Assembly (NCBI GenBank): GCA_947477185.1
Contig: CANJTH010000001.1
Span: 1 to 54,413 of the forward strand
Length of the DNA stretch: 54,413 nucleotides
Reading direction: 5' to 3'
Source of the DNA: Actinomycetota bacterium
GTDB taxonomy: Bacteria > Actinomycetota > Actinomycetes > Nanopelagicales > Nanopelagicaceae
The notes beneath the pieces are model-generated. The model did not search any database. It was not told where the DNA came from and saw only the letters and a list, made by a program, of their open reading frames with translations. Of the stretch, positions 12,366 through 37,991 are shown piece by piece. Every line of letters starts with the position of its first letter. Position 1 is the stretch's first letter. The position numbers were made by a program, and so were the translations under genes.

Positions 12366-12470
12366 TTGGTGGATTATTCATTCGAACTCTTCTTTTACTG
12401 TTGTTTTTAAACTACTATTCCTAAATTAGGCAGTGTCGATTATTGGTTGAGAATAGATTGCGGGGAATTC

Positions 12471-14538: not shown

Positions 14539-14562
14539 ACCCAAAGAAAGGACGTTGACCAG

Positions 14563-15696: not shown

Positions 15697-15727
15697 TTTA
15701 CAAAAATAACAAAAAGTAATAATATTT

Positions 15728-15742
15728 GTTCACTACCCGCAC
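15728..15742. promoter_or_regulatory. Putative IclR operator
   Basis: ttt-GTTCA-CTACC-CGCAC-ata upstream of the peptide-binding protein gene; same CTACC spacer as the box at 51921. Confidence 0.6.
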
Positions 15743-15895
15743 ATAAAATTAGTGCAAATTCAATGCAATCATAAAATAAATTCTTTGACTTCTACGCCTG
15801 TATTAGCAACAATTCAGTCAAGAAATCGAACTCAGATTCTTAGTCTTTGACGAGGTTGAGTGCGATCCCTACTTCAGTGTGAAAGGTTAAAGTCT

Positions 15896-17482: not shown

Positions 17483-17513
17483 TTTCGTAACTTACTTGGA
17501 TATAGGGACATAG

Positions 17514-19456: not shown

Positions 19457-20460
19457 TGGAATTATTAACTGTAAAAAATCTCAGCGTCACCCTTGCTACA
19501 AGTAGCGGGGAGGCCGATGCTGTTCGTAATTTATCCTTTAAAATTGGGCAAGGAGAGATTTTAGGAATTGCCGGCGAAAGCGGAAGTGGGAAAACCATGA
19601 CTGCATTAAGTCTAATAGGTCTTTTACCACATAAAGGAAGAGCTACTGGATCTATAAATTTCGACGGCCGCGACATACTTGCAAGCAGCAAACGCGAACA
19701 ACGTGATTTGCGCGGAAAAGAAATCGCAATGATTTTTCAGGATCCTATGACTTCTTTGCATCCAATGTTAACAGTAGAGGTTCAACTAACAGAACACTTG
19801 CGGCATCATAGAAAAGTTAGCAAAGAGTCTGCGCACAATACTGCTCTGCAACTTCTAGGCACCGTTAAAATCCCTGACCCAAGTGCGGCTCTTCGCGCTC
19901 ATCCAAGCCAATTTTCTGGTGGTATGCGCCAACGAATCGCAATCGCAATGGCGCTTGCGTGCGAACCTAAATTACTCATTGCCGACGAACCAACCACTGC
20001 CCTAGATGTGACAGTTCAAGCAGGTATTTTAAAGCTCTTGCACCAGCTACGCATGGAGAGAAAATTATCTATATTGGTGATTACTCACGATCTTGGAGTT
20101 CTTTCATCCCTAACAGATCGGATAATGATTATGTACGCCGGATCAGAAGTTGAATCTGGAAAGACTAGCGATTTACTTCAGAGGCCGAGACACCCTTATA
20201 CAAAGGGGCTTATATTAGCTTTGCCAGGACATAAGAACTTAGACGCACCAGCTAATGCCAAACGCTTATTATCAATTGAGGGAATGCCCCCGGAGCTCGG
20301 GAATTTTCCAACAGGATGTGCATTTCATACTCGCTGCACCTTTGCTGAAGCAGCCTGTAAAACTGTGATACCTAAAAAAATTGATATTTCGGAGTCACAT
20401 CATATTTTTTGCCCTGTTAATCCCTTCGCAGATCAAGCAGAACAGGGAGCTCGGAAGTGA
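19456..20460 (+). CDS. Peptide ABC ATPase (DppD/OppD family)
   Basis: [26 protein letters not shown]; C-terminal GCAFHTRC. Confidence 0.93.
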
Positions 20461-21428
20461 AAGAAATGTTGAATGTTTCAAACGTTATTGTTGAATATGA
20501 ACGTCATGGTGAAAAAGTAAGAGCAGTAGCTGGCGTTGATCTGACCTTAAATTATGGTGAAATTCTAGGATTAGTCGGAGAATCTGGTTGTGGTAAATCT
20601 ACGTTAGGAAAAGCAATTGTTGGAATCCTTGGAACCGCAACTGGCGAAATTGTCTTCGATGGCGAAAAAGTCACGAAATTGACTCGCGGCCAGAGACCGA
20701 AGCATTTTAGAAATTTGCAAATGGTTTTTCAGGATCCCTATGGGTCATTAAATCCACGACGAAAAATTGGCGTGCAGATTGCTGATGGCTTAGTAGTTGC
20801 CGGTTCCTCAAAGAAAGTCGCATTAGAAATGGCTGCAGCTTTACTTGAAAAGGTAGGATTGCCCGCAAATGCAATCGACAGATTCCCCCACCAGTTTTCT
20901 GGGGGACAGCGCCAGCGGATTTCAATAGCACGGGCACTTGCTGCTTCACCGACTGCGATTATTGCTGATGAGCCAATATCGGCCCTCGATACTTCTTCGC
21001 AGGCACAAGTTGCAAATTTACTGGTAAACCTAGTTGAGGAATATCAGATGGGTATGGTTTTTATCTCTCATGATTTATCTATTGTGCAAAGGATTTCAGA
21101 TCGTGTAGCTGTGATGTATCTGGGCAAAATTGTAGAGACCGGAACAGTAGATCAGATTTGGAAGAATCCTTCGCATCCCTATACGAGGGCACTTATCTCG
21201 GCAATACCGCACGCCGATGGCACTGGCTTTATGCCTGCAGATTTACCAGGAGATGTACCAAACCCACTAAGTCCTCCAAGTGGCTGTCGATTTAATCCAC
21301 GCTGTCCACTTGCTATGGATGAATGCAAAAATGTCGAGCCTGAACTGCGCACATTAAGTGATGGACGCAAAGTTGCTTGTTTCCTGCAGACAAATGGAAG
21401 TAATCCAGTACCAATCTCAATTAATTAG
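20457..21428 (+). CDS. Peptide ABC ATPase (DppF/OppF family)
   Basis: GESGCGKST, FSGGQRQR, ADEPISALD; PPSGCRFNPRCP. Confidence 0.93.
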   Translation: MKEMLNVSNVIVEYERHGEKVRAVAGVDLTLNYGEILGLVGESGCGKSTLGKAIVGILGTATGEIVFDGEKVTKLTRGQRPKHFRNLQMVFQDPYGSLNPRRKIGVQIADGLVVAGSSKKVALEMAAALLEKVGLPANAIDRFPHQFSGGQRQRISIARALAASPTAIIADEPISALDTSSQAQVANLLVNLVEEYQMGMVFISHDLSIVQRISDRVAVMYLGKIVETGTVDQIWKNPSHPYTRALISAIPHADGTGFMPADLPGDVPNPLSPPSGCRFNPRCPLAMDECKNVEPELRTLSDGRKVACFLQTNGSNPVPISIN

Positions 21429-21475
21429 CGGTTTGGTGACCAAATTGCTTATCAATCAAATCCGAAAGGCGAATA

Positions 21476-22666
21476 ATGCTCATAGTTAATGCAAGGATTG
21501 TTGATGTATTATCTGGTGAAATTAACACCCACGATGCCGTGAGAATTGCAGATGACGGTAAAATTTCGGAGTTAGGAAAATCGACAACACTGATTCGTCG
21601 CTCTGATGAGACTGTAATCGATTTAGATGGAAGATATCTATTTCCGGGGTTAATCTCTTGCCACACCCACCTCTCAGTTGTCTTTCCTTTTTCCTTGACT
21701 GATCCAAACGAGGATCCAGCTGTTACGGCCTTTCGGGCAGCAGCAAGAGCTCACGAGGCACTTCATTCAGGGATAACAACACTTCGTTCGGTTCATGAGC
21801 AGAATCAAGTTGATTTGGCGCTGCGCAATGCAGCAAAGGCTGGTTGGTTTCAAGGCCCCAGAATTTTTGGTGCAGGCAGGGCGCTTTCTACCCCAGAGGG
21901 TCATGGACAGGGCGCTGCCTGCAGTTATGCAAAGGATTTCGATGGTTTTTATAAAGCTGCAATTGGTGAACTAGATGCCGGCGCAGATCATTTGAAGATA
22001 TTTATAACTGGAGGATTGGCACGAGCTGGCGAACGTCCAGAGGACCCCGAAATGACTGATGATGAGATCAGAGGCGTAGTAAAAGCTGCAGAGGAACGCA
22101 ATACATATGTTGTTGCCCATGCTGGTGAGTCAGTAGCAATCCAGCAAGCGCTGCGCTTAGGTGTTCGCTCTTTTGAGCATGGCTATATTATGGATCAAGA
22201 TACTGTTGATGCGATGGCTGCCAAAAATGTGTTCTACTCACCAACTCTGTGTGTGACGCGATCTGAAAGTTGGATGCGCGCTAAGGGTTTTGAAGAAGCT
22301 TCGATTCAAAATTGTCTGGCAGTGAGTGATCGACATTTAGCGAGTGCAAAATTGGCAATAAAAGCTGGGATTAAAATGACCAATGGAACAGATTATCCAC
22401 CCGGAGATCGTGTAGATGGTGTACCCGCGGCTCTGCATGAATTATTTTTAATGCATGAGGCTGGCTTGAGCACCATTAAGAGCCTTCAATCGATTACATC
22501 GGTTGCATCGGATTTAATTAATCAAAGTGATTCATTAGGCCAAATAAAGTCTGGATTTTATGGTGATTTTATTGCAATGCGGGGTAATCCACTCGAGGAC
22601 CCACACAATTTGAGTGAATTAGATTTAGTAATGCAAAATGGACATCTAATAGAAAATAGATTGTAG
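21476..22666 (+). CDS. Metal-dependent amidohydrolase (prolidase / carboxypeptidase-like subgroup)
   Basis: PGLISCHTH, GADHLK, VAHA, SFEHG, GTD binuclear-metal ligand set. Confidence 0.85.
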   Translation: MLIVNARIVDVLSGEINTHDAVRIADDGKISELGKSTTLIRRSDETVIDLDGRYLFPGLISCHTHLSVVFPFSLTDPNEDPAVTAFRAAARAHEALHSGITTLRSVHEQNQVDLALRNAAKAGWFQGPRIFGAGRALSTPEGHGQGAACSYAKDFDGFYKAAIGELDAGADHLKIFITGGLARAGERPEDPEMTDDEIRGVVKAAEERNTYVVAHAGESVAIQQALRLGVRSFEHGYIMDQDTVDAMAAKNVFYSPTLCVTRSESWMRAKGFEEASIQNCLAVSDRHLASAKLAIKAGIKMTNGTDYPPGDRVDGVPAALHELFLMHEAGLSTIKSLQSITSVASDLINQSDSLGQIKSGFYGDFIAMRGNPLEDPHNLSELDLVMQNGHLIENRL

Positions 22667-23554: not shown

Positions 23555-24337
23555 ATGCCCGCTAATGCACTTGAGAAATCCAAAGATTTCGTTCAATCAA
23601 TGGAGCGAGGACTTTCAGTAATGAAAGTGTTTTCTGCAGAAAACCACAAACTTACGCTTACTGAGGTCGCCGAACTAACTGGATACACACGAGCTACAGC
23701 ACGTCGCTTCCTATTAACTCTTGAAGAGCTCAATTACATTGGAAGCACTGGTCGGTTTTTCTTCTTGCGTCCAAAAGTTTTAGAACTTGGGTACGCCTAC
23801 CTTACTGCTTATAGTTTAGTGTCAATTGCCCAAAATCATTTAGAGATTTTGGCAGAAGATTTACGTGAGTCATGTTCTGCATCGGTACTTGAAGGTGAAA
23901 GTGTCATCTACATATGCCGTGCATCAACCAACCGCATCATGACTGTGAATCTGTCAGTGGGACATTCCTTGCCAGCCTATGCCACTTCTATGGGGCGAAT
24001 TCTTCTGGCTGCCCTTTCAGAGAAAGAGATCGACGAGTACCTTGCAAAGTACATTCGAAAGAAATTGACATCTAAAACGGTGATTGATGCCGCCGAACTA
24101 AAGCAGATTCTAAAAGACGTCCGTAAAAGAGGGTGGGCAATAAATAACCAAGAACTAGAAGAGGGAGTTCAATCGATTGCAGTGGCTATCCGCGATAAGT
24201 CTGGAAAGATAGTCTCTGCCGCTAATATCAGTGCCCATGCGACCCGAGTTTCGATCGAAGATTTAGAAACAAAATTCCTACCAAAACTCCAAGCGGCTGT
24301 TGCCGAAATTGAAAAAGATCTCTCGCATCAGCCTTAG
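23555..24337 (+). CDS. IclR family regulator, PcaR/PobR subfamily
   Basis: DFVQSMERGLSV, LTLTEVAELTGYTRATARRFLLTL, LPAYATSMGRILLA, QELEEG; AGGAGG RBS. Confidence 0.92.
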   Translation: MPANALEKSKDFVQSMERGLSVMKVFSAENHKLTLTEVAELTGYTRATARRFLLTLEELNYIGSTGRFFFLRPKVLELGYAYLTAYSLVSIAQNHLEILAEDLRESCSASVLEGESVIYICRASTNRIMTVNLSVGHSLPAYATSMGRILLAALSEKEIDEYLAKYIRKKLTSKTVIDAAELKQILKDVRKRGWAINNQELEEGVQSIAVAIRDKSGKIVSAANISAHATRVSIEDLETKFLPKLQAAVAEIEKDLSHQP

Positions 24338-24340
24338 GGT

Positions 24341-25810
24341 TTAAACCCCATCGATACAGAGGTATTTGATTTCTAGGAATTCTTCAATTCCATGTTTGGA
24401 TCCCTCACGACCGACTCCAGATTCTTTTACCCCGCCAAAGGGTGCACCTTCATAAGAAATTAACCCCGTATTAATCCCAACGACTCCAGCCTCCAGGCCT
24501 TCGGCAATTCGCCACGTACGGCCATTGTCTTGAGTGAAGAAGTACGCGGCCAATCCGAATGGCGTGTCATTGGCAATTCGAAGAGCGTCTTCCTCAGTAG
24601 AAAACTTAATAATTCCGGCGAGTGGACCAAAAGTTTCCTCACGCATTAAGAGCATATTTTCAGTGACGCCAGTGATGATTGTGGGCTCAAAAAAGGTTCC
24701 TTCGGACCCAATACGTTTTCCACCAGAGATGATCTTTCCTCCAAGAGCAACGGCATCATCAATGTGGGATATCACCTTAGAAATAGCATCCTCATTAATT
24801 AGAGGTCCCTGTTTAGTATCAGCATTTAGACCATTTCCAACCTTAAGTTTGGCAACGGCAATTTGAAGGGCTGCCACAAACTCATCATGAATGTTATCTT
24901 GCACCAAGATTCGATTGGCACAAACGCAGGTTTGGCCGGCATTACGAAATTTTGAAGCGATTGCGCCGGCAACGGCCGCATCGAGACTGGCATCATCAAA
25001 GACAATAAACGGGGCATTGCCGCCAAGCTCCATAGCAACCTTCTTCACAGTGGAAGCCGATGCTGCCATAAGAAATTTTCCAACTTCGGTAGATCCCGTA
25101 AAGCTAAGCGCCTTGACTATTGGACTAGAAGTAATTACTTCACCAATCATTTGTGATGGCCCAACAAGAACACTTAAAACCCCTGCAGGAATTCCAGCAC
25201 GGCGTGCCAATTCAGCCATTGCATTTGCAGATAAAGGAGTATCTGTTGCAGGTTTGATTACCATGGAGCATCCAGCGGCAAGTGCTGGCCCTGCCTTTCG
25301 AGCGATCATGGCCATAGGAAAGTTCCAAGGGGTAATCGCAGCAGTAACTCCAATTGCTTGACGAATAGTTAAGAGCCTGCGGCTAGAAACATTTGTCGGA
25401 ATAGTTTCGCCATACAGTCGCTTTCCTTCTTCGGCATACCATTCGATAAAGCCAGCACCATAAATTATTTCGCCACGAGCTTCGTCAAGGGGCTTACCTT
25501 GCTCGCAAGTCAGAATTTGTGCAAGGTCATCCACGTTTTCAAGAATCAGGTTGAACCATGTACGCAGAATCTTGGCCCGATCTAGCGCAGTCTTTTTGGA
25601 CCACAACTTAAATGCTGTATCAGCTAAAGAAATTGCCCGCTCGACGTCAAGCTTTGTGGCCATGGCAACTTCGGCGATAACTTTCCCAGTGGCAGGATTT
25701 ACTACAGCCGTACGCTTTCGGTCAGAGGATTCAACCCACTCACCGCCAATGAAGAGATTTTGCTGCAATAAATCGGAATCAGCCAGCTTGATACTTTCTT
25801 CGATTGCCAT
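24341..25810 (-). CDS. gabD: NAD(P)-dependent succinate-semialdehyde dehydrogenase
   Basis: AITPWNFP, SFTGSTEVG, MELGGNAPF, SKFRNAGQTCVCANR, EETFGP, PFGGVKESG. Confidence 0.88.
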   Translation of the reverse strand: MAIEESIKLADSDLLQQNLFIGGEWVESSDRKRTAVVNPATGKVIAEVAMATKLDVERAISLADTAFKLWSKKTALDRAKILRTWFNLILENVDDLAQILTCEQGKPLDEARGEIIYGAGFIEWYAEEGKRLYGETIPTNVSSRRLLTIRQAIGVTAAITPWNFPMAMIARKAGPALAAGCSMVIKPATDTPLSANAMAELARRAGIPAGVLSVLVGPSQMIGEVITSSPIVKALSFTGSTEVGKFLMAASASTVKKVAMELGGNAPFIVFDDASLDAAVAGAIASKFRNAGQTCVCANRILVQDNIHDEFVAALQIAVAKLKVGNGLNADTKQGPLINEDAISKVISHIDDAVALGGKIISGGKRIGSEGTFFEPTIITGVTENMLLMREETFGPLAGIIKFSTEEDALRIANDTPFGLAAYFFTQDNGRTWRIAEGLEAGVVGINTGLISYEGAPFGGVKESGVGREGSKHGIEEFLEIKYLCIDGV

Positions 25811-25897
25811 TGAGCCCACTCATTTCTCTATTGAAACACCTGCAACCCTATTGTAGACAGTATCGCGATAAATCGGTAGGTTGTTCACAAAGGTTGA

Positions 25898-25916: not shown

Positions 25917-27311
25917 ATGAGTGGAGTAGAGAAAAAGATGAACACGAAGTCTCTTTCTGAAAAAGATAAAGAATATTTCTTTCATCCTTTCACTGCGCTG
26001 AAGGCGCATGAACAATTAGGTGGAAAAATTATCGTCAAGGGAAAAGATTCAACTATTGAAGACTCTGATGGAAATAAATTTATTGACTCGATGGCAGGAC
26101 TGTGGTGTGTCAACATCGGGTACGGAAATAAGGAAATGGCAGAATCGATCCACGATCAGGTTCTAAAACTTTCTTACTATCACGCATTTTCTTCTTTTAG
26201 CACGGATTTAGCCGTTGAGCTCTCCGCCCGTCTTATTAAAATGGCTCCGGTCCCAATGTCGAAGGTTTTCTTCGGAAATAGTGGCTCCGATGCAAATGAT
26301 ACAAATGCCAAAATAGTTTGGTTTTACAACAACGCCCTTGGTCGCAAAGAAAAGAAAAAAATTATTGCCCGACGACGCGGTTACCATGGAGTGACAGTGC
26401 TGTCCTCCGGACTAACTGGACTGGACAATCTTCACGATGGATTTGATTTACCCCTTCCTATGATTCGTCACGTACGTCCCCCACATCGCTTGTGGGAAAA
26501 AGAACCGGGAGTTACTGATGCCGAATTTTCACAGATTTTGGCCGATGAGTTAGAAACTCTCATATTGAAAGAGGGCCCAGATACAGTTGCTGCCTTTATT
26601 GCCGAGCCATTTCAGGCTGCAGGAGGTGTGATAATTCCTCCTGCAGAGTACTTCCCTGCGATTCAAAAAGTTTTGAAGAAGTATGACGTAATTCTAATTG
26701 CAGATGAAGTGGTCTCAGCCTTTGGCCGCCTTGGTCAAATGTTTGGTACAACAGCCTATGGCATGGAGCCTGACATCATCACGGTGGCAAAAGGGATTAC
26801 CTCTGCTTACATTCCACTGTCAGCTTCCATGATTTCAGAAAAAGTCTGGCGTGTTCTGGCTGATGGTAGTGAAAAATATGGTGCTTTTGGACACGGCTAC
26901 ACATACTCTGCGCACCCATTGGCAGCGCGAGCGGCGTTGACCAATCTTGACTTCTTAGAGAAAAATAATCTTGTTGGGCAAGCTGCAATTAGTGGAGCAT
27001 ATTTGCAAAAATCTCTGCGCGAGGAATTTGGAGATCACCCAATGGTTGGCGAAGTACGCGGGCAGGGATTAGTTGCTGCAATCGAATTTGTGGCTTCGAA
27101 AGCGCCAATGACCGCCTTTGCACCAAGTGAAAAAATAGCATCTCGAATTGCGCGACGATCGATGGACCTTGGTGTTATTACTCGCGCACTTCCGGCAGGT
27201 GATTCTATATCTTTTAGTCCACCATTTATTATCACAGAAGAAGAGATTGACACAATAGTTAAAACGGTACACAGAGCCGTCGATGATGTCATGAAAGAAA
27301 TTGGGCGTTAG
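25917..27311 (+). CDS. Class III (omega) PLP aminotransferase
   Basis: DSMAGLWCVNIGYG, NSGSDAND, GYHG, IADEVVSAFGR, TVAKG, HGYTYSAHP; the start could be ATG at 25938. Confidence 0.92.
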   Translation: MSGVEKKMNTKSLSEKDKEYFFHPFTALKAHEQLGGKIIVKGKDSTIEDSDGNKFIDSMAGLWCVNIGYGNKEMAESIHDQVLKLSYYHAFSSFSTDLAVELSARLIKMAPVPMSKVFFGNSGSDANDTNAKIVWFYNNALGRKEKKKIIARRRGYHGVTVLSSGLTGLDNLHDGFDLPLPMIRHVRPPHRLWEKEPGVTDAEFSQILADELETLILKEGPDTVAAFIAEPFQAAGGVIIPPAEYFPAIQKVLKKYDVILIADEVVSAFGRLGQMFGTTAYGMEPDIITVAKGITSAYIPLSASMISEKVWRVLADGSEKYGAFGHGYTYSAHPLAARAALTNLDFLEKNNLVGQAAISGAYLQKSLREEFGDHPMVGEVRGQGLVAAIEFVASKAPMTAFAPSEKIASRIARRSMDLGVITRALPAGDSISFSPPFIITEEEIDTIVKTVHRAVDDVMKEIGR

Positions 27312-27316
27312 TTCAA

Positions 27317-28477
27317 GTGAGCACCAAACTTAAGGTGGGTTTGATAGTTAACCCAATCTCAGGCATGGGTGGGAAAGTAGGTTTACACGGAACGGATCGC
27401 GAGTCATTTAGAACTGCGATTGGCTTAGGAGCTCGCCCGACTTCTGGTGAACGAACAATACGTGCGCTCCGCGGTCTAGTTAGAGATTTAGAACTTTTTG
27501 ATTTCTATGCGGTCAAAGGTGTATTGGGTGGAGATTATTTGGAAGCATTGGGAATCACCTACCAATACTTAACTACTGATACCGTACACGAAATTACATC
27601 GGGATACGATACACAAATTACTGTATCAGCCATGATTGAAGCGGGCATAGATCTCATTCTCTTTTCTGGAGGTGATGGCACTGCCCGTGATATTTTCTGC
27701 GTAATTGGTGATTCCTCCCTCATACTGGGGATTCCATCTGGCGTAAAAATGCGCAGTGAAGTCTTTGGAATCTATCCAGAATCAATCCCCGAGATAATGG
27801 TCGGACTTGCTAAAAATTTTCAAGGGCATCAACCCGACAGTGCGGAAATATTAGATGTTTCAGAGACGCTGGACTCAAACGGGTCTTGGAGTACGGAATT
27901 ATTCGGTGTTGCCAAAACTCCAAGGACTAGGCGCTTGATTCAAAGCGGTAAAATCTCTGGTCAGTCACATAGTGAGGTTGGTTTGCGCGAATTAGCACGA
28001 GAGATTGCCACAGAAATGATTCCAGGGAAACTCTATTTGATCGGTCCAGGAAGAAGCGCTCATTTGCTCCTAGAAGAGCGTGGAGTTAAGGGCAGTTTTG
28101 TGGGAGTTGATGCACTCGTTGATGGGGTAGTTCTGAAAACTGATTGCAGCGAAGTAGAGATTCTCTCCCTGCTTGAGCGCTATGAGCAGCGAGAATTAAT
28201 TTTAGGTGTCATCGGCGGGCAGGGGTTCCTTTTAGGTCGGGGAAATCAGCAGATTAGCACTGCCGTTATATCCGCATTGGGATTTGGCGCAATTAAAGTT
28301 ATCGCCAGCGCACAGAAAATTGGAGCGCTTATACCCGCCACGTTGCATGTCGATCTTGAAGTATCTGGTGAGCAGATGGTTTTTCCTCGCTACATTCAGG
28401 TGCATACGGCCCCAAACCGAACTATCTTATGTTCAATAGAAGTACCAGCCCGTCACGAAGCAATCATGGTCATGTGA
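27317..28477 (+). CDS. ATP-NAD kinase / AcoX-like family protein
   Basis: GLIVNPISGMGG.VGLHGTD, GGDGTARD, GIPSGVKM.S.VF, IGGQGFLLGRGNQQIS. Confidence 0.8.
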   Translation: MSTKLKVGLIVNPISGMGGKVGLHGTDRESFRTAIGLGARPTSGERTIRALRGLVRDLELFDFYAVKGVLGGDYLEALGITYQYLTTDTVHEITSGYDTQITVSAMIEAGIDLILFSGGDGTARDIFCVIGDSSLILGIPSGVKMRSEVFGIYPESIPEIMVGLAKNFQGHQPDSAEILDVSETLDSNGSWSTELFGVAKTPRTRRLIQSGKISGQSHSEVGLRELAREIATEMIPGKLYLIGPGRSAHLLLEERGVKGSFVGVDALVDGVVLKTDCSEVEILSLLERYEQRELILGVIGGQGFLLGRGNQQISTAVISALGFGAIKVIASAQKIGALIPATLHVDLEVSGEQMVFPRYIQVHTAPNRTILCSIEVPARHEAIMVM

Positions 28478-28489
28478 GGATGAGGAATA

Positions 28490-29902
28490 ATGAATAAAGA
28501 AGTACTACCAACGCCGCACCCATTCATGGCTAATTCTGCTGCGGTCAGTTATAAAGAGATGTTACGAGTGGCAGAAGTAGATGACATCGAAGAGCTCTTT
28601 GAGCAGATTCCTAACGAACACCGTTACAAAGGCAGATGGAATTTCCCCCCATCACTTGCTTCAGAGGCCGCCCTTTATAAACATATGAATTCAATCTTAA
28701 AGAAGAGCATTTCCTGCGAAGACAATCTGAATTTTCTGGGTGCTGGATGCTGGCAGCATTACGTTCCAGCTATTTGTGATGAAATGGTTACACGCACTGA
28801 ATTCCTCACCCCAGTATGGGGCACGCCGTCATCCGACCATGGACGCACACAAGTTTGGTTTGAGTTTCAAAGCCAGATTGGTGAACTTATAGGAATGGAG
28901 TTTGTAGGCCTTCCTTTATACAGTTATGGAACAGCAGCTGGTCATGCTGTTCGAATGGCGGCTCGGATAAATGGAAGAAGTGAAGTTCTAGTCCCCTCCA
29001 CACTTGATCCTGAGCGTTTGAAAGTTTTAAAGACTTACTGTGGATTTCCAGAGCTCAATGGCTACATTTCAATTGTAATGGTTGCAGTAAACGCTGACGA
29101 TGGCGGCATGGACCTCGATGATCTACATGCAAAAATAAGCACTAAAACTAGTGCGGTCTACTTTGAGAACCCAACTTATTTCGGAAGTATTGAGTTAAGG
29201 GCTCATGAAATCAGTGCGATCGCACATCAAGTAGGAGCAGAAGTAATTGTGGGCGTTGATCCAATATCTCTGGGAGTGATTGCCCCACCTTCGGAGTATT
29301 CGGCAGACATAGTTGTTGGAACTACACAACCGCTTGGCGTCCACATGAATGCCGGGGGCGGAGTGGGAGGTTTTATTGCTACACGCGATGAGGCCAAATA
29401 CGCCAAGGAGTATCCGACACTGCAAGTGAGCTTAACTGGCACCACACATCCTGGGGAATTAGCCTTTGGTCTAACGCTCTTCCATCAATCATCCTATGGT
29501 TCGCGTGAGAATGGCAAAGATTGGACGGGCAATTCAGTTTATTTGTGGGCAGTTGCCAATGCGACCTATATGTCACTAATGGGACCTCAAGGATTTAGAG
29601 AAATTGGCGAAACCATCATTCAGCGGTCTCATTATGCCGCCTCTCTCATAGATGAAATAGAGGGTGTCAGCATTAAGTGGAGGCAGGGTTTTTTTAAAGA
29701 ATTCGTTGTAGATTTTTCAAAATCTAAATTGAAGGTTGCCCAGATTAATAAGAAGCTATTGGAACATTCGATATTTGGCGGTAAGGATCTGAGCAGGGAC
29801 TTTCCGCACATGGGGCAAAGCGCCCTTTATTGCATCACAGAGATCCATAGCCTGGAAGACATTGCCGTCCTTGTCGATGCACTTAAAAAGGTGGTGAAGT
29901 AA
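28490..29902 (+). CDS. gcvPA: Glycine decarboxylase P-protein alpha-like subunit (divergent)
   Basis: IEELFEQIP, FLGAG..HYVP, ENPTYFG, ADIVVG..QPLG, FFKEFV, CITE; the canonical YTPYQ motif is absent. Confidence 0.82.
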   Translation: MNKEVLPTPHPFMANSAAVSYKEMLRVAEVDDIEELFEQIPNEHRYKGRWNFPPSLASEAALYKHMNSILKKSISCEDNLNFLGAGCWQHYVPAICDEMVTRTEFLTPVWGTPSSDHGRTQVWFEFQSQIGELIGMEFVGLPLYSYGTAAGHAVRMAARINGRSEVLVPSTLDPERLKVLKTYCGFPELNGYISIVMVAVNADDGGMDLDDLHAKISTKTSAVYFENPTYFGSIELRAHEISAIAHQVGAEVIVGVDPISLGVIAPPSEYSADIVVGTTQPLGVHMNAGGGVGGFIATRDEAKYAKEYPTLQVSLTGTTHPGELAFGLTLFHQSSYGSRENGKDWTGNSVYLWAVANATYMSLMGPQGFREIGETIIQRSHYAASLIDEIEGVSIKWRQGFFKEFVVDFSKSKLKVAQINKKLLEHSIFGGKDLSRDFPHMGQSALYCITEIHSLEDIAVLVDALKKVVK

Positions 29903-29903
29903 A

Positions 29904-31457
29904 ATGAAAAAATTGAAGAATTATCACGCTCAAGTTTGGGATGAGCCACTTGCGATGCAGCTTGGCGTTTCAGGTCGCCGTGGCGCGATATTGCCAACAG
30001 TTGAGGCAGAGATCGTGCAGCGAGTCGGTACTGCACAGGATTTAATACCAGCAGCTCTGCGCCGAAAGAGCCTGCCAGAGCTTCCAGAGATGTCCGAGTT
30101 TGAAGTTCAACGGCACTACCTCCACCTGTCGCAGCAAACGATGGGCATGATGGGTATAAGTCTTTTTGGGACCTGCACAATGAAGTACAACCCGAGGGTA
30201 AATGAAAGACTAGTCTATCAGCATAATGTTACAGAATTAAACCCACACCAACCCGTTGAAACTCTTCAAGGCGTCCTGGAAGTAATTAGTAAATTTGATC
30301 ACCTTCTCCGAGAACTCTCTGGACTAGATCGATTTGTCTTTCAAGCAGGCGGCGGTGCAGATGCTGCATACACACAGGTATGCATTACACGTTCCTACCA
30401 TGCCTCGCGAGGCGAGTTAGCTCAACGCAATGAAATTATTACGACTTCACAAGCGCACCCATGTAATCCAGCTACTGCTGCTGCGGCGGGATTTAAAGTT
30501 ATTACTCTTCCATTAGAGGCTGATGGATTTCCATCTGTAGAAGCTCTCCGCGCAGTTGTTTCTAATCGGACCGCAGCATTGATGGTCAATAATCCGGATG
30601 ACGTAGGCATTTATAATCCGAATATTGCCGAATGGGTAAAAATTGTTCATGAAGCAGGCGGGCTTTGTTTCTATGACCATGCCAATTTCAATGGAGTGAT
30701 GACTCGGCTGCGCGCGGCCGATCTTGGTTTTGATGCATGTATGTATATGTTACATAAGACTTTTGGTGGGCCAAAGGGTGGGGGAGGTCCTGCCGTAGGC
30801 GCCTATGGATGTAATGAAAAACTAATTCCATTCTTGCCGGGACCCCTAGTTGAAGAAGATGCCAATGGCAGCTACTACCTACAAGAGAATCCAAATTCCA
30901 TCATCGGCACGGTCCGAGAGTTCTGGGGAAATGTTCCAGTTGTCATTCGTGCCTATGCCTGGACTAGGGCAATGGGTATCGAAGGCCTGCGTGATGCGGC
31001 CAATATTTCGGTTTTGGCCAACAACTATATGGAAAAACGGTTGATGAAGATTAAGGGAATTTCTATCGGTTTTCCTGACATGAAGAAGCGTCGCCTTGAG
31101 ATGACACGTTACGGATTAGGTGAACTCACTAAAGAGACTGGAGTGAGTACCATCGACGTACAAAATCGAATGACTGATTTCGGTGTCGATGCATATTGGC
31201 TTAGTCATGAACCATGGTTTGTTCCCGAACCTTTCACCCCAGAAGCGGGTGAATTATGGTCGATAGAAGATATAGATTATTGGATTGATGTTTTGGAGCA
31301 TGTCTGTAACGAAGCCCGCACAAATCCGGAGCTTGTCAAAACTGCCCCGCATAATCAGGTAGTGCATAAATTAGATGGCACAAATCTTGATGATCCTGAG
31401 AAGTGGGCTACTACCTGGAAGGCATATCGCCGTAAGTACAAAAAAGATACCCCTTAA
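29904..31457 (+). CDS. gcvPB: Glycine decarboxylase P-protein beta-like subunit (divergent)
   Basis: LPEMSEFEVQRHY..LSQ, GTCTMKYNP, PLP-lysine motif LHKTFGGPKGGGGP. Confidence 0.85.
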   Translation: MKKLKNYHAQVWDEPLAMQLGVSGRRGAILPTVEAEIVQRVGTAQDLIPAALRRKSLPELPEMSEFEVQRHYLHLSQQTMGMMGISLFGTCTMKYNPRVNERLVYQHNVTELNPHQPVETLQGVLEVISKFDHLLRELSGLDRFVFQAGGGADAAYTQVCITRSYHASRGELAQRNEIITTSQAHPCNPATAAAAGFKVITLPLEADGFPSVEALRAVVSNRTAALMVNNPDDVGIYNPNIAEWVKIVHEAGGLCFYDHANFNGVMTRLRAADLGFDACMYMLHKTFGGPKGGGGPAVGAYGCNEKLIPFLPGPLVEEDANGSYYLQENPNSIIGTVREFWGNVPVVIRAYAWTRAMGIEGLRDAANISVLANNYMEKRLMKIKGISIGFPDMKKRRLEMTRYGLGELTKETGVSTIDVQNRMTDFGVDAYWLSHEPWFVPEPFTPEAGELWSIEDIDYWIDVLEHVCNEARTNPELVKTAPHNQVVHKLDGTNLDDPEKWATTWKAYRRKYKKDTP

Positions 31458-32407
31458 TGAAGTTTTCAATCGTTGGCTCTGGAAGCATCGGAGCTGCTTG
31501 GGCAATAACTTTTGCTCGTGCCGGTCATGATGTATCGGTTTATGATGTGGAGCCAGAAAAATTAAATTCTCTCAACTCGGGGCTTTCTACACGGTTACAT
31601 TTTCTGGCAATTGAAGAGTTGATTTCAGAGGACCCCGAAAGTATTTTGAAGAGAATATCTACGACGACCGATCTATCCCTTTGCCTGGAAGGCGCTACTT
31701 ATGTACAAGAGTGTGCGCCAGAAAAGATTGAGATAAAGGAAAGAATATTTGAAGAGTTAGATCGCCTAACTAATAAGAATGTCATTCTGGCGAGTTCCTC
31801 ATCAGCTTTGGGAGCCTCGAAATTCAATCAAAGGATGCAACACCCGGAAAGAGCGCTGGTAGTACACCCAGGAAATCCTCCCTACTTACTTTCGGTTGCC
31901 GAAGTTGTCCCATCAAATAAGACATCGCCCGCAATTACATCTCAAACGATTCTAATTTTAGAACAGGTGGGAATGCATCCTGTTGAGGTTAAGAGAGAAA
32001 TTGAAGGTTTTGTATTTAATCGCTTGCAGGGGGCAGTACTCCGAGAGGCTTACTGTTTGGTAAGAGATGGTGTAATTGGCCCAGAGGAGATTGACTTAAT
32101 TGTTACGCAGGGACTGGGCAAGAGATGGGCAGTTATTGGACCATTTGGAACCTCTTCATTGAATGCGCAAGGCGGTATACGCGATCACGCTTCTCGTATG
32201 GCCGAAAGTTATTATCAGATGGGTAAAGATCGCAATCAAAACGACCCTTGGACTCCAGAAATGGTGGAGTCTGTAGCTGGAGTGATGGAAAAGATATTTA
32301 AGATAGATGAATGGGAATCTAATGTTGAGAAGCGGGATCGCGCATTAGCAGAAATAAATAATTTAATTGCTAATAGTCATAATTTTAATTTCTATGATAA
32401 GAAGTAG
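31457..32407 (+). CDS. 3-hydroxyacyl-CoA dehydrogenase family (lambda-crystallin / L-gulonate or carnitine 3-dehydrogenase-like)
   Basis: VGSGSIG.AWA, QECAPE...K, LASSSS, HPGNPPYL, GFVFNRLQ, GLGKRW..IGPF. Confidence 0.85.
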   Translation: MKFSIVGSGSIGAAWAITFARAGHDVSVYDVEPEKLNSLNSGLSTRLHFLAIEELISEDPESILKRISTTTDLSLCLEGATYVQECAPEKIEIKERIFEELDRLTNKNVILASSSSALGASKFNQRMQHPERALVVHPGNPPYLLSVAEVVPSNKTSPAITSQTILILEQVGMHPVEVKREIEGFVFNRLQGAVLREAYCLVRDGVIGPEEIDLIVTQGLGKRWAVIGPFGTSSLNAQGGIRDHASRMAESYYQMGKDRNQNDPWTPEMVESVAGVMEKIFKIDEWESNVEKRDRALAEINNLIANSHNFNFYDKK

Positions 32408-32416
32408 ATTATTGAT

Positions 32417-32863
32417 CTAATGCCGAGCGACTGGATGCATTTTTTCTCGGTGAAAGTTTTCTATATGAACAGCAAAGAGTTTGAGCTCTGAGATTTTCCA
32501 TACCCCTAGCTCGTAAGTAAATTTGTGATGGTAATGTCCCCACAGGTAGCCAATCTCTGGTTTATGTTGGTATCTATGCCAAGCATAAACATATGAAGTC
32601 GAATGCGCCGACTCGGGTGAGTCAAAATCGAGAATAAAATTTGAAAGGTGATGACTCGTTTGAGCAAAAAGATTATCTAAGCCTCCAGTAAACATAGCTA
32701 AAGCGGCTGCCTTACTTTTTAGGGGCGGGACTTCTGGACCGTAATCGATAAGTACATCCTCGGTAAATAGTTCTATGATTTTTTCGGGCTGATTGGTGTC
32801 AAAATAGAGACAATATTTCTTTACTAAATCTTCAATGGATACGCGGTCTTCACATTTTTCCAT
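32417..32863 (-). CDS. SnoaL-like / NTF2 family protein
   Basis: DR..IEDL...YC...D, ELFTED, TSHHLSN, GHY.H.F....G.WKI. Confidence 0.78.
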   Translation of the reverse strand: MEKCEDRVSIEDLVKKYCLYFDTNQPEKIIELFTEDVLIDYGPEVPPLKSKAAALAMFTGGLDNLFAQTSHHLSNFILDFDSPESAHSTSYVYAWHRYQHKPEIGYLWGHYHHKFTYELGVWKISELKLFAVHIENFHREKMHPVARH

Positions 32864-32967: not shown

Positions 32968-33076
32968 AAAAAAGTGGTGCAATTATCCTTAAATGCCCTA
33001 GTAAATACTTGTAGTTTGTGTGAAAATTTCTGCATATATCAGGAGAGGATCAAAAAAGTGCTCTGTGATACCGGAG

Positions 33077-34534
33077 GTGTGCAGCATTAACAATAAAGCG
33101 GAGTTTGTTTTCGACTTTGCAGTAATAGGTGGTGGTCCTGCCGGTATGGCTGCTGCAGTGCGCGCCTCTGAAAATGGAGTAGGTGTCGTCCTGATTGATG
33201 AACGGGATTCTCTTGGCGGACAGATATTTAAGCAACTTGGCCCAGGTTTTAAAGTCACAAATCCAAACGAGTTACAAGTACCACCACACATAGGCCAGGC
33301 GCTAATTTCCAAATCTGAACAGAGTAAAATCACTTTTTTTCTAAAAACTACAGTGCTTTCAATAGAAGACAATGACTTAATGGTTGCTAGCGATAGTGAC
33401 CATGTTTCTAGAATAACCTTTAGAAAATTGCTCATAGCAACTGGTGCATATGATCGGCCAGTTGCATTTCCGGGCTGGACACTTCCTGGAGTTATCACAG
33501 CAGGTTCAGCCCAAACATTAGTGAAGACCCAGAGGGTATTACCTGGCTCGAAAATCATTTTTGCAGGAAGTGGGCCAGTTGCCCTCGCTTTTCCCGCACA
33601 ACTTGCCAAATTGGGGGCGAATATAGTTTCAGTTCTTGAGGCTGGACCAGCACCTACTCCAATAAATGTTGTAAAACTTCTCTCCGCATCTGTAGGTAAT
33701 TGGGATTTGATTGTCGATGCCATGAAATATCGTTCAATGCTTGTACGCAAAAGAATCCCTGTGCGATATAGAAGCATCATTGTCGAAGCTCATGGAACAT
33801 CCAGAGTTGAAGCTGTAACAATTGCAAAAGTAGACCGTAACTGGAGAATCAAGCAGGGTACCCAGCAGCGGATAGAGGTGGATACTCTGTGTCTTGGTTA
33901 CGGCTTCCTGCCCTCAAGCGAACTACTGAGATTAGTTGGGTGTGAATTTGAATATGAGGAAAGTAAAGGTGGTCAGGTAATAAAGAGTGACCAATGGGGT
34001 CACACAACTGTACCCAATGTCTATGCAGTTGGAGACGGATCAGGGGTGGAGGGATCCTATATTGCTATTAGCCGTGGAAACTTAGTAGGAATTTCGGTTT
34101 CCAAAGAGTTGAATCACATAGGAATCGACCAGGCGAATATTCAGGCAAAAAAATTTCACTCTGAAACTAGACGACGAAGGGCATTTCAAAGAGCTTTACG
34201 GTCAATGTTTGATGTAAAAGTTGGAATTTTTGAGTTGGCAGATGATCAGACCATTATCTGCAGGTGTGAAATCGTAAGGAAAAGAGAGATTGATCTCGTT
34301 ATTAATTCCACTTCTGACTTATCGGTCGTGAAGGCTATTACCCGCGCCGGAATGGGCTCTTGCCAAGGTAGAAATTGCCAGCGACAGATTTCAGCTATGG
34401 TCGCACTTCGTCACGGGATAGACATCGCAAAAGTTCCGCAGGGGACACCAAGATTCCCAGTTAAGCCAGTGGCATTAGGGTCAATAGCGGATAAGAGCGT
34501 CACCGATCAGAAATACTTTTTTGATGCAAAATAA
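33077..34534 (+). CDS. FAD-dependent oxidoreductase with C-terminal BFD-like [2Fe-2S] domain (HcnB / OoxA / D-Hyp dehydrogenase alpha-like)
   Basis: GGGPAG, LGGQ, IATGAYDRP..FPGWTLPGV, ICRCE and GMGSCQGRNC; start uncertain (33020-33077). Confidence 0.85.
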   Translation: MCSINNKAEFVFDFAVIGGGPAGMAAAVRASENGVGVVLIDERDSLGGQIFKQLGPGFKVTNPNELQVPPHIGQALISKSEQSKITFFLKTTVLSIEDNDLMVASDSDHVSRITFRKLLIATGAYDRPVAFPGWTLPGVITAGSAQTLVKTQRVLPGSKIIFAGSGPVALAFPAQLAKLGANIVSVLEAGPAPTPINVVKLLSASVGNWDLIVDAMKYRSMLVRKRIPVRYRSIIVEAHGTSRVEAVTIAKVDRNWRIKQGTQQRIEVDTLCLGYGFLPSSELLRLVGCEFEYEESKGGQVIKSDQWGHTTVPNVYAVGDGSGVEGSYIAISRGNLVGISVSKELNHIGIDQANIQAKKFHSETRRRRAFQRALRSMFDVKVGIFELADDQTIICRCEIVRKREIDLVINSTSDLSVVKAITRAGMGSCQGRNCQRQISAMVALRHGIDIAKVPQGTPRFPVKPVALGSIADKSVTDQKYFFDAK

Positions 34535-35747
34535 CTCGCACGCCACGGTTACAAGTTTTTTACCAGATGATTCTGCAAATGCCGCTCTTCCGGCCCATTC
34601 AGAGACGGTTATAATTGGCGGTGGACTACTGGGGTCGGCTCTAGCTTATTATTTATCGCAATCAAGGGTTGAAGTCACCTTGCTTGAGCGAGGAGAACTT
34701 AATCGCGAGGCTTCAGGAACTAACGCTGGTAGTTTTCATTTTCAAATTGCAATTCATCAACTGACAAAAGGTGTTACATCAGAGGACGAAAAACGCCTAG
34801 CTGCAGAAGTGCGTTTACAGTTGGATGCAGCCAAACTATGGCATGGATTAGAGAGTGAACTCGAAGCGGATTTAGGGGTTCATTTTACTGGTGGCATTAT
34901 GGTTTCTGAGACGGAAGAAGAGCTTCAAGTTTTGCGCGATAAACAGCATATTGAGAATTTGGCAGGACTTGAAACTCATGTCATGACAGGTGAGGAGATG
35001 CGAAATTTTGCTCCTTATCTCTCCCCGAAACTCAGTGGAATTTCGTATTGCCCTCAAGAAGGCCACGCAAATCCTTTAACAGTTGCTCCCATTTTTGCTT
35101 TACGCGCAGCTCAATCGGGCGCCCAAATACGCAAAAACTGTGAAGTACTTTCAATTACTCCTCTTGATAACACACCTGGTTTTCGATTCAAGGTAAAGAC
35201 AAGCCGAGGCGATATTTTGTGTAACCGAGTAGTTAACGCAGCTGGAGCTTGGACGCAGGAACTTTCATTAAAGCTCGGAATTTCGCTGCCAATAGGCCTG
35301 AGTGGATTGCACGTAAACGTCACCGAGGCTTATGAGCATGTCCTGACTCCGATGGTTCAACACATTGGGCGTCGATTAACACTCAAGCAATCAGCCAATA
35401 ACACATTTATTATCGGTGGGGGTTGGCCTTCTCGTTTACAGGAGTTTCCAAAAAGGTATTCAAACTATTGGGCGAGTGCAGCCGGAAATGCTGCAGTGGC
35501 AATAGATGTGCTCCCGCTACTAAAAGATGTTCGACTTATTCGTGTGTGGTCAGGAATCTGGGCTTACACAAATGATTTCATGCCAATCCTAGGGGAGTCA
35601 AAAAAGCTTCCTGGCTACCATGTAGCTTTGGTACCTACTGGATTTACACTTGGTCCAATGGTTTCTAGCATGCTCGCCGAATACATGGTTTCTTTCGGCA
35701 AGTCTAACCCTATTCCTGACGAGTTTAATGTCGATAGATCAAGTTAG
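34524..35747 (+). CDS. FAD-dependent amino-acid oxidoreductase, DAO family (HcnC / OoxB-like)
   Basis: IIGGGLLG, EASGTNAGSFH, VNAAGAW, D.MPILG, GFTLGP. Confidence 0.87.
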   Translation: MQNNSHATVTSFLPDDSANAALPAHSETVIIGGGLLGSALAYYLSQSRVEVTLLERGELNREASGTNAGSFHFQIAIHQLTKGVTSEDEKRLAAEVRLQLDAAKLWHGLESELEADLGVHFTGGIMVSETEEELQVLRDKQHIENLAGLETHVMTGEEMRNFAPYLSPKLSGISYCPQEGHANPLTVAPIFALRAAQSGAQIRKNCEVLSITPLDNTPGFRFKVKTSRGDILCNRVVNAAGAWTQELSLKLGISLPIGLSGLHVNVTEAYEHVLTPMVQHIGRRLTLKQSANNTFIIGGGWPSRLQEFPKRYSNYWASAAGNAAVAIDVLPLLKDVRLIRVWSGIWAYTNDFMPILGESKKLPGYHVALVPTGFTLGPMVSSMLAEYMVSFGKSNPIPDEFNVDRSS

Positions 35748-35791
35748 ATCGATGTTCAATCCCAATAGTCTCAAAGAAGAGGAGCTAAAGA

Positions 35792-36724
35792 ATGGATCGT
35801 AATTCAGTTGATTGGAAAGGCTATTGGCCTGCTTCACCGACCCCGTTCAAAGAAAATGGGGAGATTGATTTTACACTCCTAGGCTTACTTATTGATAGCT
35901 ACTTAAACCTAGGCATGCATGGCATTTTTATAAATGGCACAACTGGTGAATGGTTCTCGCAAACACATGAAGAGAGGAAAGAAGTTGCAGCTTTCGTTTT
36001 AGATCGTGTTGCAGGCCGCGTCCCTGTTGTAGTTGGCGTAACAACGTTTACGGCCAAAGAGTCAATCAAGCTGGGCGAACATGCGATATCAGTAGGAGCT
36101 GCTGGTATATGTTCATCAGCACCTGCTTATTCTAAAACGCTACCTAATGAAACTTTGGCTTATTTTCAAGACCTTGGGAAAGGCGTATCTGCTCCAACAA
36201 TGATTTATAATTGGCCACATGGGACGTCAATTGAAATCGAAGGGGATCTTGCACGCAGGTTGGCTGATTTAGAAAATGTTGTAGCAATTAAAGACAGCAC
36301 GGGTAATGTAGATCAGTTCTTTGCCACTGCTAAAGCACTCATTAAGGACGTTCGCATATTCGGTAACTTTATGACTCCGAGCAATTTGGATTTCATGATC
36401 GAGTTTGGTGGAGACGGCACAATCGGTGGAGGAAGTATTTTTGGGGCCGCAGATCCGCAATACTGGGAGAATTACTGGGCGGGTAATCTTGAGCCAGTTA
36501 GGGCACATGCAAATCGAAACCTCAAACTTCTTGAAGCTCTTTGGGAGCCAGGCGGTTGGCGCGGTAAATGGGGGGGGTATCAAAGTCAGCTAAAGGTAAT
36601 TATGGCAATAATGGGAGCACCTGGGGGAACTGTACGTAGACCTCGACTTCCAATCACAGATAGCCAAAGCCTTGAAAAAATTAGGTCAATATTGATTGAA
36701 TTCGACATCCCGGTAGTTAAGTAA
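35792..36724 (+). CDS. DapA/NAL family lyase or deaminase
   Basis: TPF, NGTTGEW, IYNWP, Schiff-base lysine in IKDS; GAGGAG RBS. Confidence 0.88.
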   Translation: MDRNSVDWKGYWPASPTPFKENGEIDFTLLGLLIDSYLNLGMHGIFINGTTGEWFSQTHEERKEVAAFVLDRVAGRVPVVVGVTTFTAKESIKLGEHAISVGAAGICSSAPAYSKTLPNETLAYFQDLGKGVSAPTMIYNWPHGTSIEIEGDLARRLADLENVVAIKDSTGNVDQFFATAKALIKDVRIFGNFMTPSNLDFMIEFGGDGTIGGGSIFGAADPQYWENYWAGNLEPVRAHANRNLKLLEALWEPGGWRGKWGGYQSQLKVIMAIMGAPGGTVRRPRLPITDSQSLEKIRSILIEFDIPVVK

Positions 36725-36736
36725 GGAGGATTAACT

Positions 36737-37675
36737 GTGTTCCTTGGAGTAGATCATGCAGGTATTGGCGTCGGGGATATGGATACAGCCCTTGATTTTT
36801 GGGGCCGTAAGCTGGGATTTACCGAACTCTATTTTGATTACACAGGCCCAATTCCTGGATTAGAAGAGATAACAAAGACGAACCAAGTCAAGGCCCGTAT
36901 CGTCATGTTGGGAAATAAGAATTCCTCTCGACTTGGACCAGGAAAAGTAAAATTAGTTCAACGTTTAGATGGCGAAGGAGCACCGCCATATCCTTCAGGA
37001 ATCGGGTATGGTGAAATCGGGCTCGCTGAAGTTTGCCTGCATACGGTTCATACCCAGAAGATTTACCAAGAACTTGTTGAAAAACTTGGCTGCGAATCTC
37101 TCATGGTTCCACTCAATGCCTCAGTTGGCCCACACGATATAGAACTTGATATTGGATATATAGCAGATCCATGGCGAGGGAAAGTTGAACTGATTGAATG
37201 GAAAGGGTTGTGGACATCTCGGCCAGGATTACCAAGAGTTGAAGGCGTCAATCACGTTGCATTCGGAGTATCAGACATGAAAACAACAATTGATTTCTAC
37301 AAGCAATTGGGTTTCCTCGATCAGATATTTGAGTCGACCGAGTTTTTTGAACCAATGGCCCCTTGGTATCAAGTTGGTCGGCCACTCCCAGGGCACCACA
37401 TGACTCTTCACTTATCTTCACAAGGCGCTGGAATCGAACCAGTTCGCCTAACACCACTCTATGAAGATTGTCGAGGCGAGTGGGGGCATGTAGGACCAAT
37501 GGATTTTGGCATTGGTGTCCAAAATATCAAAAAAGGCGTTGCCGAACTTGAGCGATTAGGCATTGAAATGCATTCAGAGATTCAAAGACTCGATGTAGGA
37601 AACTCAGAATATAAGTATGTATATTTTAGGGATCCTGATGATCAGTACGTTTGCTTAGTGGAGAGTTCTTACTGA
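36737..37675 (+). CDS. Two-domain VOC / glyoxalase family protein
   Basis: Two repeats, VDHAGIGV.D....DFW and VNHVAFGV.D....DFY; YIADP..G..VELIE and YFRDPD..LVE; AAGGAGG RBS. Confidence 0.82.
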   Translation: MFLGVDHAGIGVGDMDTALDFWGRKLGFTELYFDYTGPIPGLEEITKTNQVKARIVMLGNKNSSRLGPGKVKLVQRLDGEGAPPYPSGIGYGEIGLAEVCLHTVHTQKIYQELVEKLGCESLMVPLNASVGPHDIELDIGYIADPWRGKVELIEWKGLWTSRPGLPRVEGVNHVAFGVSDMKTTIDFYKQLGFLDQIFESTEFFEPMAPWYQVGRPLPGHHMTLHLSSQGAGIEPVRLTPLYEDCRGEWGHVGPMDFGIGVQNIKKGVAELERLGIEMHSEIQRLDVGNSEYKYVYFRDPDDQYVCLVESSY

Positions 37676-37676
37676 C

Positions 37677-37991
37677 TTATTTATCGACCTGCAGGCCATT
37701 TTGAGTCCTAATCTCCATACCCTCTTTGACCCAAGTCATACATGCCCGAGTATTTGTAATTCCATCGACACTCACTAAACATTCAAAGCACACACCCATT
37801 CCACAAAAGACACCACGTGGATCACCCGCGACCGTAGTGCGCATTGCAGATATCCCCTCGCACATCATTGCGCTCGCAACGCTTTCACCTTCATAAGCAT
37901 TTGCTATTACGCCATTAATTGTTATTTTTACAGCTTCGCCGCGTTCAATATTTCCATCAGAAGGTAGACGAACTGCACGAATATTGGGCAT
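37677..37991 (-). CDS. [2Fe-2S] subunit (HcnA / D-Hyp dehydrogenase gamma-like)
   Basis: GESVASA, RGVFCGMGVCFECLV.VDG...RAC. Confidence 0.88.
   Translation of the reverse strand: MPNIRAVRLPSDGNIERGEAVKITINGVIANAYEGESVASAMMCEGISAMRTTVAGDPRGVFCGMGVCFECLVSVDGITNTRACMTWVKEGMEIRTQNGLQVDK

Follow-up and report, generated by a model that had tools for sequence, protein, structure and literature searches.

Two-subunit P-proteins of the GcvPA/GcvPB type (EC 1.4.4.2; Thermus thermophilus structures 1WYT and 1WYU) are treated as single-function enzymes, and genes resembling them are counted as markers of glycine cleavage or of the reductive glycine pathway. Here we describe a pair of such genes from a Nanopelagicaceae bacterium, a lake actinobacterium with a small genome, located on a DNA stretch of 54,413 nucleotides (contig CANJTH010000001.1 of assembly GCA_947477185.1; in the following, the window). 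The alpha subunit (470 amino acids, 28490..29902) and the beta subunit (517 amino acids, 29904..31457) are encoded on the forward strand, directly behind the gene for a kinase-like protein of 386 amino acids on the same strand (27317..28477), here called KIN. The pair is likely a pyridoxal phosphate (PLP)-dependent alpha-beta enzyme of P-protein descent that has given up glycine cleavage. Our leading, tentative reading is that KIN would O-phosphorylate a vicinal amino alcohol, that the pair would cleave the phospho-compound without an H-protein, and that the resulting aldehyde would enter an accessory catabolic island of about 40 kb. No study on this P-protein paralog or on the KIN family was found in the open-licence literature of PMC and bioRxiv.

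Further described systems invite comparison. Sphingosine kinase and sphingosine-1-phosphate (S1P) lyase (StSPL, Dpl1p, SGPL1) likewise combine a kinase of the diacylglycerol (DAG) kinase superfamily with a fold-type-I PLP enzyme that carries a lysine six residues behind the PLP lysine. However, S1P lyase is homodimeric and acts on a lipid, whereas the pair is encoded by two genes, its neighbours point to a polar substrate, and its closest folds are P-proteins, with S1P lyase ranking after them. In the system of hydroxylysine kinase and the 5-phosphohydroxylysine/phosphoethanolamine phospho-lyases, reportedly described by Veiga-da-Cunha and colleagues in 2012, a beta-hydroxy amine is phosphorylated and then undergoes PLP-dependent elimination to an aldehyde, and a similar course is proposed here. 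Hydroxylysine kinase belongs to a family other than that of KIN. The phospho-lyases are described as class III aminotransferase-type enzymes (PMC8154272); compared with that system, KIN and the pair would be an independent solution. Finally, AcoX of the acetoin dehydrogenase operons shares with KIN a PF01513 domain with a GGDGT motif. Judged by these comparisons, the pair would be neither a glycine decarboxylase in the functional sense nor an S1P lyase, and most likely works like a kinase together with a phospho-amino-alcohol lyase.

Like GcvPA/GcvPB, the pair has an alpha-beta organization and the corresponding fold, and both subunits pass the NCBIfam equivalog cut-offs, alpha with 426 bits on NF001696 (GcvPA, cut-off 364) and beta with 502 bits on NF003346 (GcvPB, cut-off 441). 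Relatives therefore carry gcvPA/gcvPB names in RefSeq. In a Foldseek search, P-proteins ranked first; SufS and S1P lyase came next, and their scores were similar. Seven altered motifs had been listed in a first-pass annotation of the locus, and all of them are present in frame and conserved in the family. In the alpha subunit these are EFLTPVWGTPSSDHG (28799-28843; the loop had been placed at about 28793-28843, six nucleotides too early at its start), GLPLYSYG (28907-28930) and SRENGKDWTGN (29501-29533), and in the beta subunit QAGGGADA (30342-30365), AHPCNP (30453-30470), YDHAN (30672-30686) and LHKTFGGPKGGGG (30750-30788, forward strand), the last of which contains the PLP lysine K285 and, at +6, K291. 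The canonical forms were checked against 1WYT and the two fused GcvPs of the host genome itself.

In the alignment of beta with 1WYT_B, off which the residue numbers were counted, K266, H265, H166, D239 and G132/A133 are kept as K285, H284, H185, D258 and G151/A152, that is, the PLP lysine, the stacking histidine, the pyridine aspartate, the HK dyad and the GA of the phosphate loop are all in place. In contrast, E136, S168, G240 and H272 are replaced by A155, C187, H259 and K291, respectively. In the alignment of alpha with 1WYT_A, the loops at 28799-28843 and 29501-29533 are rebuilt: Y95 and Y98 are replaced (YTPY to VWGTP), and RRAKAKSNITT reads SRENGKDWTGN. Thus, unlike in GcvPA/GcvPB, the glycine-site tyrosines, the RRxKxxSNI loop, beta Glu136 and the HG[ST]N and PH motifs are replaced. 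Among the aligned beta sequences, H185, D258, H284 and K285 are each conserved in 81 of 81, in agreement with the earlier statement that the PLP lysine is retained; K291 is found in 80/81 and C187 in 77/81. In alpha, G347 (88/88), D344 (87/88) and W345 (86/88) are similarly conserved, and the loop reads SRExGxDWTGN family-wide where canonical P-proteins have RRxKATSNICT, so that RRxK becomes S-R-E-x. The alterations thus characterise the family as a whole, being nearly fixed across its 81-88 aligned sequences; a frameshift or decay is ruled out by the whole reading frames and by this conservation. In the human P-protein, Y161 and Y164 are classed as active-site residues, and R373 and K376 are modelled as contacts to the H-protein (PMC7259800). 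By motif counting, the residues lost in alpha would correspond to these four. The PLP-binding residues are kept, whereas the glycine-site tyrosines and, by this mapping, the modelled H-protein contacts are lost. At one related locus (L072:9959-12934, forward strand), alpha and beta form a single open reading frame (ORF) of 991 amino acids, which is either an independent GcvP-like fusion or a sequence error.

The first-pass annotation had regarded the pair as a P-protein paralog, and both the host genome and phylogeny bear this out. The 68%-complete host genome contains two fused canonical GcvPs, both with canonical motifs, one gcvH and a gcvT, all on other contigs, which rules out the pair as its sole P-protein. 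The two fused gcvP copies (G000 C7:497-3448 and C14:16394-18824) are near-identical with matching upstream genes and possibly reflect strain mixing in the assembly. In two beta-subunit trees, which were quick, midpoint-rooted and without bootstrap, with random locus subsets and full-length representatives as rows, a branch with an SH-aLRT of 99-100 separates the remodelled sequences from the P-proteins of HG[TS]N type, among which they are not nested, and the clade of the window (clade I) has a support of 100. According to these trees, the pair is a paralog in a separate, well-supported clade that excludes P-proteins of HG[TS]N type. Yet another remodelled beta lineage, the third, has Met or Lys at +6 (P0247, P0252) and stands apart from clade I and its sister clade II. 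A GTDB genome search yielded 553 matches to the paralog, and the locus counts out of 80 given below, except those for clade II, refer to the best 80 of these relatives. The nearest named records are metagenome-assembled genomes (MAGs) of Actinomycetota and Ca. Nanopelagicales, and cultured, non-pathogenic carriers include Rhodococcus jostii RHA1 (pRHL1), Paracoccus aminophilus (pAMI4) and Actinomadura spp. In 40 related genomes (24 of them congeners, and two, G030 and G038, unpublished) the paralog is missing throughout, with best matches of at most 201 bits as compared to 990 for the window gene; thus, the island is accessory. All five cultured carriers checked have a single gcvH, and four of them have a fused gcvP elsewhere. 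The NCBIfam scores, and the fifth carrier, a draft genome in which no canonical gcvP was detected, would also agree with a glycine decarboxylase isozyme of the usual kind whose motifs have drifted and which handles glycine freed by the island. We consider this very unlikely in view of the canonical copies in the host genome and in 4/5 carriers, the separate clade with its fixed alternative motifs and the missing linkage to T- or H-protein genes.

This missing linkage is evident on two levels. The window had been described as free of gcvT, gcvH, a lipoate-ligase gene and a glycine riboswitch, and Pfam scans of 51 of its 65 ORFs of at least 100 amino acids (the other 14 overlap those 51 in other frames) found no GcvH, GcvT or lipoate ligase, while an Rfam scan gave zero family matches, glycine riboswitch included; no riboswitch was found in seven sister-clade loci either. 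Across the family, a linked gcvH or lpd-like gene was found in 0/80 loci each and gcvT in one, as a weak match at the edge. KIN, in contrast, is located directly upstream of alpha in 77/80 loci (59 co-directional, 18 divergent). This genetic linkage supports the earlier proposal that the kinase-like protein is a dedicated partner of the pair. In the first of the three loci without adjacent KIN the contig begins 228 bp upstream, and no KIN was recovered from that MAG.

From its domains (PF01513 and PF20143) and its intact GGDGT motif, KIN appears to be a member of the NAD-kinase/DAG-kinase superfamily. GGDGT (G119-T122) is invariant in 75 of 75 sequences, and the best, albeit weak, fold matches of the predicted model (pLDDT 89.5) are to DgkB and NADK, i.e. 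DAG and NAD kinases; PDB sequence searches with KIN gave no significant match. KIN likely functions as an amino-alcohol kinase. Its earlier designation as AcoX-like is loose: the match to an AcoX-type protein is confined to 40 amino acids around GGDGT (30%, E 6e-4), and AcoX scores 25 bits against the KIN profile as compared to 337-461 bits for family members. With neither full-length similarity nor an acoABC context, KIN as a true AcoX is ruled out. The function of AcoX is given as unknown in PMC10107126, whereas PMC10943186 describes that acetoin dehydrogenase activity needed AcoX, yet AcoX lacked three kinase activities. An activator role like that of AcoX for the lipoyl-dependent acetoin dehydrogenase is therefore conceivable for KIN, and the pair might then oxidatively cleave another amino acid with borrowed housekeeping lipoyl H- and L-proteins. 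The short KIN-AcoX match, the loss of the modelled H-contact residues and the lack of linked gcvH or lpd genes argue against this, as do the many genomes in which KIN adjoins epmC and no P-like pair is close by, and we regard it as improbable.

Among 401 Pseudomonadota genomes, 32 carry KIN. Thirty loci were read, two of them with KIN beside a P-like pair and 28 without. In 13 of the latter, epmC is directly upstream of KIN. At the Pseudomonadota loci L200, L203-L208, L213, L220, L223-L226 and L102, KIN directly follows epmC, the gene of the elongation factor P (EF-P) hydroxylase, with ends often touching or overlapping. Elsewhere (L202, L210-L212, L216, L222) KIN is near a pdxB-type gene (2-hydroxyacid dehydrogenase with DUF3410), a possible link to vitamin B6.

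A further hint at the reaction comes from K291, which takes the place of a histidine in true P-proteins. All five S1P lyases tabulated in PMC6148460 (Table 3) use the lysine at +6 for the substrate phosphate, and K317 is described as a phosphoethanolamine ligand (PMC10243590); among 12 other group II decarboxylases taken as control, none has Lys at +6. K291 matches the phosphate lysine of S1P lyase by spacing alone, not by structural superposition, and may act as a substrate-phosphate ligand. Clade II, sampled as 80 of 401 metagenomic relatives fetched with a Bacillus plasmid member, has His at +6 in 76 of 76 full-length sequences and retains one of the alpha tyrosines. In its 32 well-flanked loci, a short-chain dehydrogenase/reductase (SDR) is present in 28 and KIN in only seven; gcvH/gcvT was found in 1/80 clade II loci. 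Lys at +6 paired with a near-obligate KIN, as in clade I, fits a phosphorylated substrate. At two loci (L249:5699-12029, L250:4549-8296) a His-type paralog and KIN lie beside a gene resembling the beta subunit of N,N-dimethylformamidase, and both genomes have a clade I pair elsewhere.

In the reaction we favour, KIN would thus prime the amino alcohol by phosphorylation, and the pair would either eliminate phosphate and ammonia or perform a retro-aldol cut of the S1P lyase type, after which the aldehyde would pass to neighbouring dehydrogenases. The independence from H-protein can only be inferred, since the single housekeeping gcvH of the five carriers could be borrowed. The first-pass annotation had proposed an amino acid other than glycine as the substrate; such an amino acid may be decarboxylated, but a kinase-primed lyase fits at least as well. 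PduX and CobD form a kinase-plus-decarboxylase pair that could serve as a model for such an H-protein-independent decarboxylase of a hydroxy or O-phospho amino acid other than glycine, whose amine product would pass to the omega-aminotransferase and an aldehyde dehydrogenase (ALDH). Decarboxylation is the ancestral chemistry, the PLP residues are kept, and Lys291 could equally bind a side-chain phosphate. A gamma-aminobutyrate-type aminotransferase is encoded in 47/80 loci and an ALDH in 32/80, the Gemmobacter locus has a Cu amine oxidase, and on a plasmid of Peptoclostridium acidaminophilum (L101:7992-10068) a KIN homolog is coupled to a HisC/CobD-like PLP enzyme that replaces the P-like pair. 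However, the glycine site has lost its active-site tyrosines, and the aminotransferase is missing from most compact operons of Rhodococcus, Sphingomonas and Gemmobacter. We therefore rank this possibility, unlikely as it is, second to the kinase-primed lyase and ahead of the H-borrowing enzyme with an activator and the glycine isozyme. For the P-protein scaffold, a reaction on something other than glycine would mean new chemistry; it would also provide a first substrate for an uncharacterised kinase family and point to a nitrogen compound worth an island of about 40 kb in this bacterium.

With respect to the substrate, 5-hydroxylysine or a derivative is the leading named candidate, a doubtful one that is drawn from indirect gene neighbours. 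EpmC is described to yield beta-lysyl-hydroxylysine on EF-P (PMC12856214), and, as stated above, epmC directly precedes KIN in many Pseudomonadota loci. A lysine-permease-like APC transporter and Lys/Arg/Orn-type binding proteins are among the neighbours. Furthermore, 82 sister-clade loci include 10 with an EbgA-type beta-galactosidase and six with a GH63 glucosidase, 15 having either. Collagen hydroxylysine bears a Glc-a1,2-Gal glycan (PMC8537180), and a mutant of YgjK was crystallised with Glc-a1,2-Gal, GH63 being said to prefer nigerose (PMC13671375). It is a rather speculative possibility that the P-protein scaffold was turned into a stand-alone lyase which, with a new family of hydroxylysine kinases, forms a so far unrecognised bacterial and archaeal recycling route for 5-hydroxylysine from collagen and EF-P. 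In that case, hydroxylysine would also be the substrate of the KIN proteins encoded next to epmC in Gammaproteobacteria, and the gcvPA/gcvPB genes of hundreds of species would be misannotated. Alternative substrates are amino-deoxy sugar acids or alditols, and amino alcohols freed from N-substituted conjugates. Amino sugar acids are plausible, with a 2-keto-3-deoxygluconate permease, glucosamine-6-phosphate deaminase and sugar ABC transporters among the neighbours.

Several observations weigh against a kinase-primed lyase or against hydroxylysine as its substrate. The fold matches of KIN are weak (TM about 0.2), and for AcoX, a distant relative, the kinase activities tried are reported to be absent. 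In the other two loci without adjacent KIN, the KIN of the genome stands beside a second paralog that is 41-45% identical. Overall, KIN is found in 20/80 clade II loci, and the His-type paralog at L249 also pairs with KIN; the Lys/His split is a single evolutionary contrast, and one with exceptions. By motif-level mapping, the S1P lyase ligands Tyr105, His129 and Asn126 appear not to be kept. In one Mesorhizobium genome, about 11 kb separate KIN from the gene of a GcvT-like aminomethyltransferase (L244:6030-7157) that scores below the GcvT cut-off. A pdxB-type gene is near KIN in 6 of the 28 pair-free Pseudomonadota loci, and the epmC-KIN link may therefore be inherited synteny. EbgA or GH63 glycosidases occur in 0/89 loci (L010-L098), five of the ten loci with EbgA are closely related to one another, and the match between GH63 and YgjK covers just 114 amino acids. 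The 68%-complete genome revealed no hydroxyproline epimerase (PF05544), nor did the neighbour families present in at least three loci include one, which makes the standard L-hydroxyproline pathway doubtful.

KIN and the pair are part of a co-directional run that opens with a class III omega-aminotransferase (25917..27311, forward strand) and ends with a 3-hydroxyacid dehydrogenase resembling lambda-crystallin and L-gulonate 3-dehydrogenase (31457..32407, forward strand). The spacings are 5, 12 and 1 nucleotides, followed by a one-base overlap between the stop of beta and the start of the dehydrogenase gene. Divergent from the aminotransferase gene is that of an ALDH of the succinate-semialdehyde dehydrogenase type (24341..25819, reverse strand; above the cut-off of TIGR01780), next to an IclR-family regulator (23555..24337, forward strand) whose relatives score as PcaR type. 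A SnoaL-like protein (32417..32863, reverse strand; 18/80 loci) follows the dehydrogenase. According to domain scans, the genes at 33020..37991 encode oxidase-type alpha and beta subunits, a family member of the dihydrodipicolinate synthase (DHDPS)-type lyases, a two-domain VOC protein and a 2Fe-2S subunit; from their domain make-up, the alpha and beta subunits presumably resemble opine/D-hydroxyproline dehydrogenase. Between 38106 and 48092 lie genes of families that recur in related loci: a second DAO-type oxidase, a second DHDPS-like lyase, an old yellow enzyme, three SDRs, a two-subunit CoA transferase, an EamA transporter and a second oxidase alpha subunit. A polar amino-acid ABC transporter (48543..51787, reverse strand) has counterparts of like type in about 30 related loci. 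The forward-strand genes at 12447..22666 for DUF885, DUF4440, an M24 peptidase, a peptide ABC transporter and a Xaa-Pro-dipeptidase-like amidohydrolase probably belong to the same island. When the ABC binding protein and both DHDPS-like proteins were searched against the PDB, only generic matches came up, with no clue to the substrate, and promoter and terminator counts showed no excess over shuffles.

In total, the catabolic island spans about 40 kb (12447-54192) of a 1.2-Mb assembly. Oxidase subunits and DHDPS-like lyases are duplicated in it, and its gene content suggests that a hydroxylated nitrogen compound is imported and broken down. In the 80 clade I loci, the omega-aminotransferase and the lambda-crystallin-like dehydrogenase are found 47 times each, flavin amine-oxidase subunits 47 and 34 times, DHDPS-like lyases 37, ALDH 32 and IclR regulators 28 times. 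SDRs, a CoA transferase, an F420 enzyme and amino-acid or sugar ABC transporters are further neighbours, and the stretch from about 12.4 to 54 kb of the window contains most of these families. The compact Rhodococcus operon has the order SDR-APC-SDR-KIN-alpha-beta-acyl-CoA ligase-deacylase, and R. jostii RHA1 has a comparable run of genes. On a haloarchaeal plasmid (Natronosalvus), KIN lies 55 kb away from the pair and has like neighbour types; families similar to those at 12447..22666 are present there as well.

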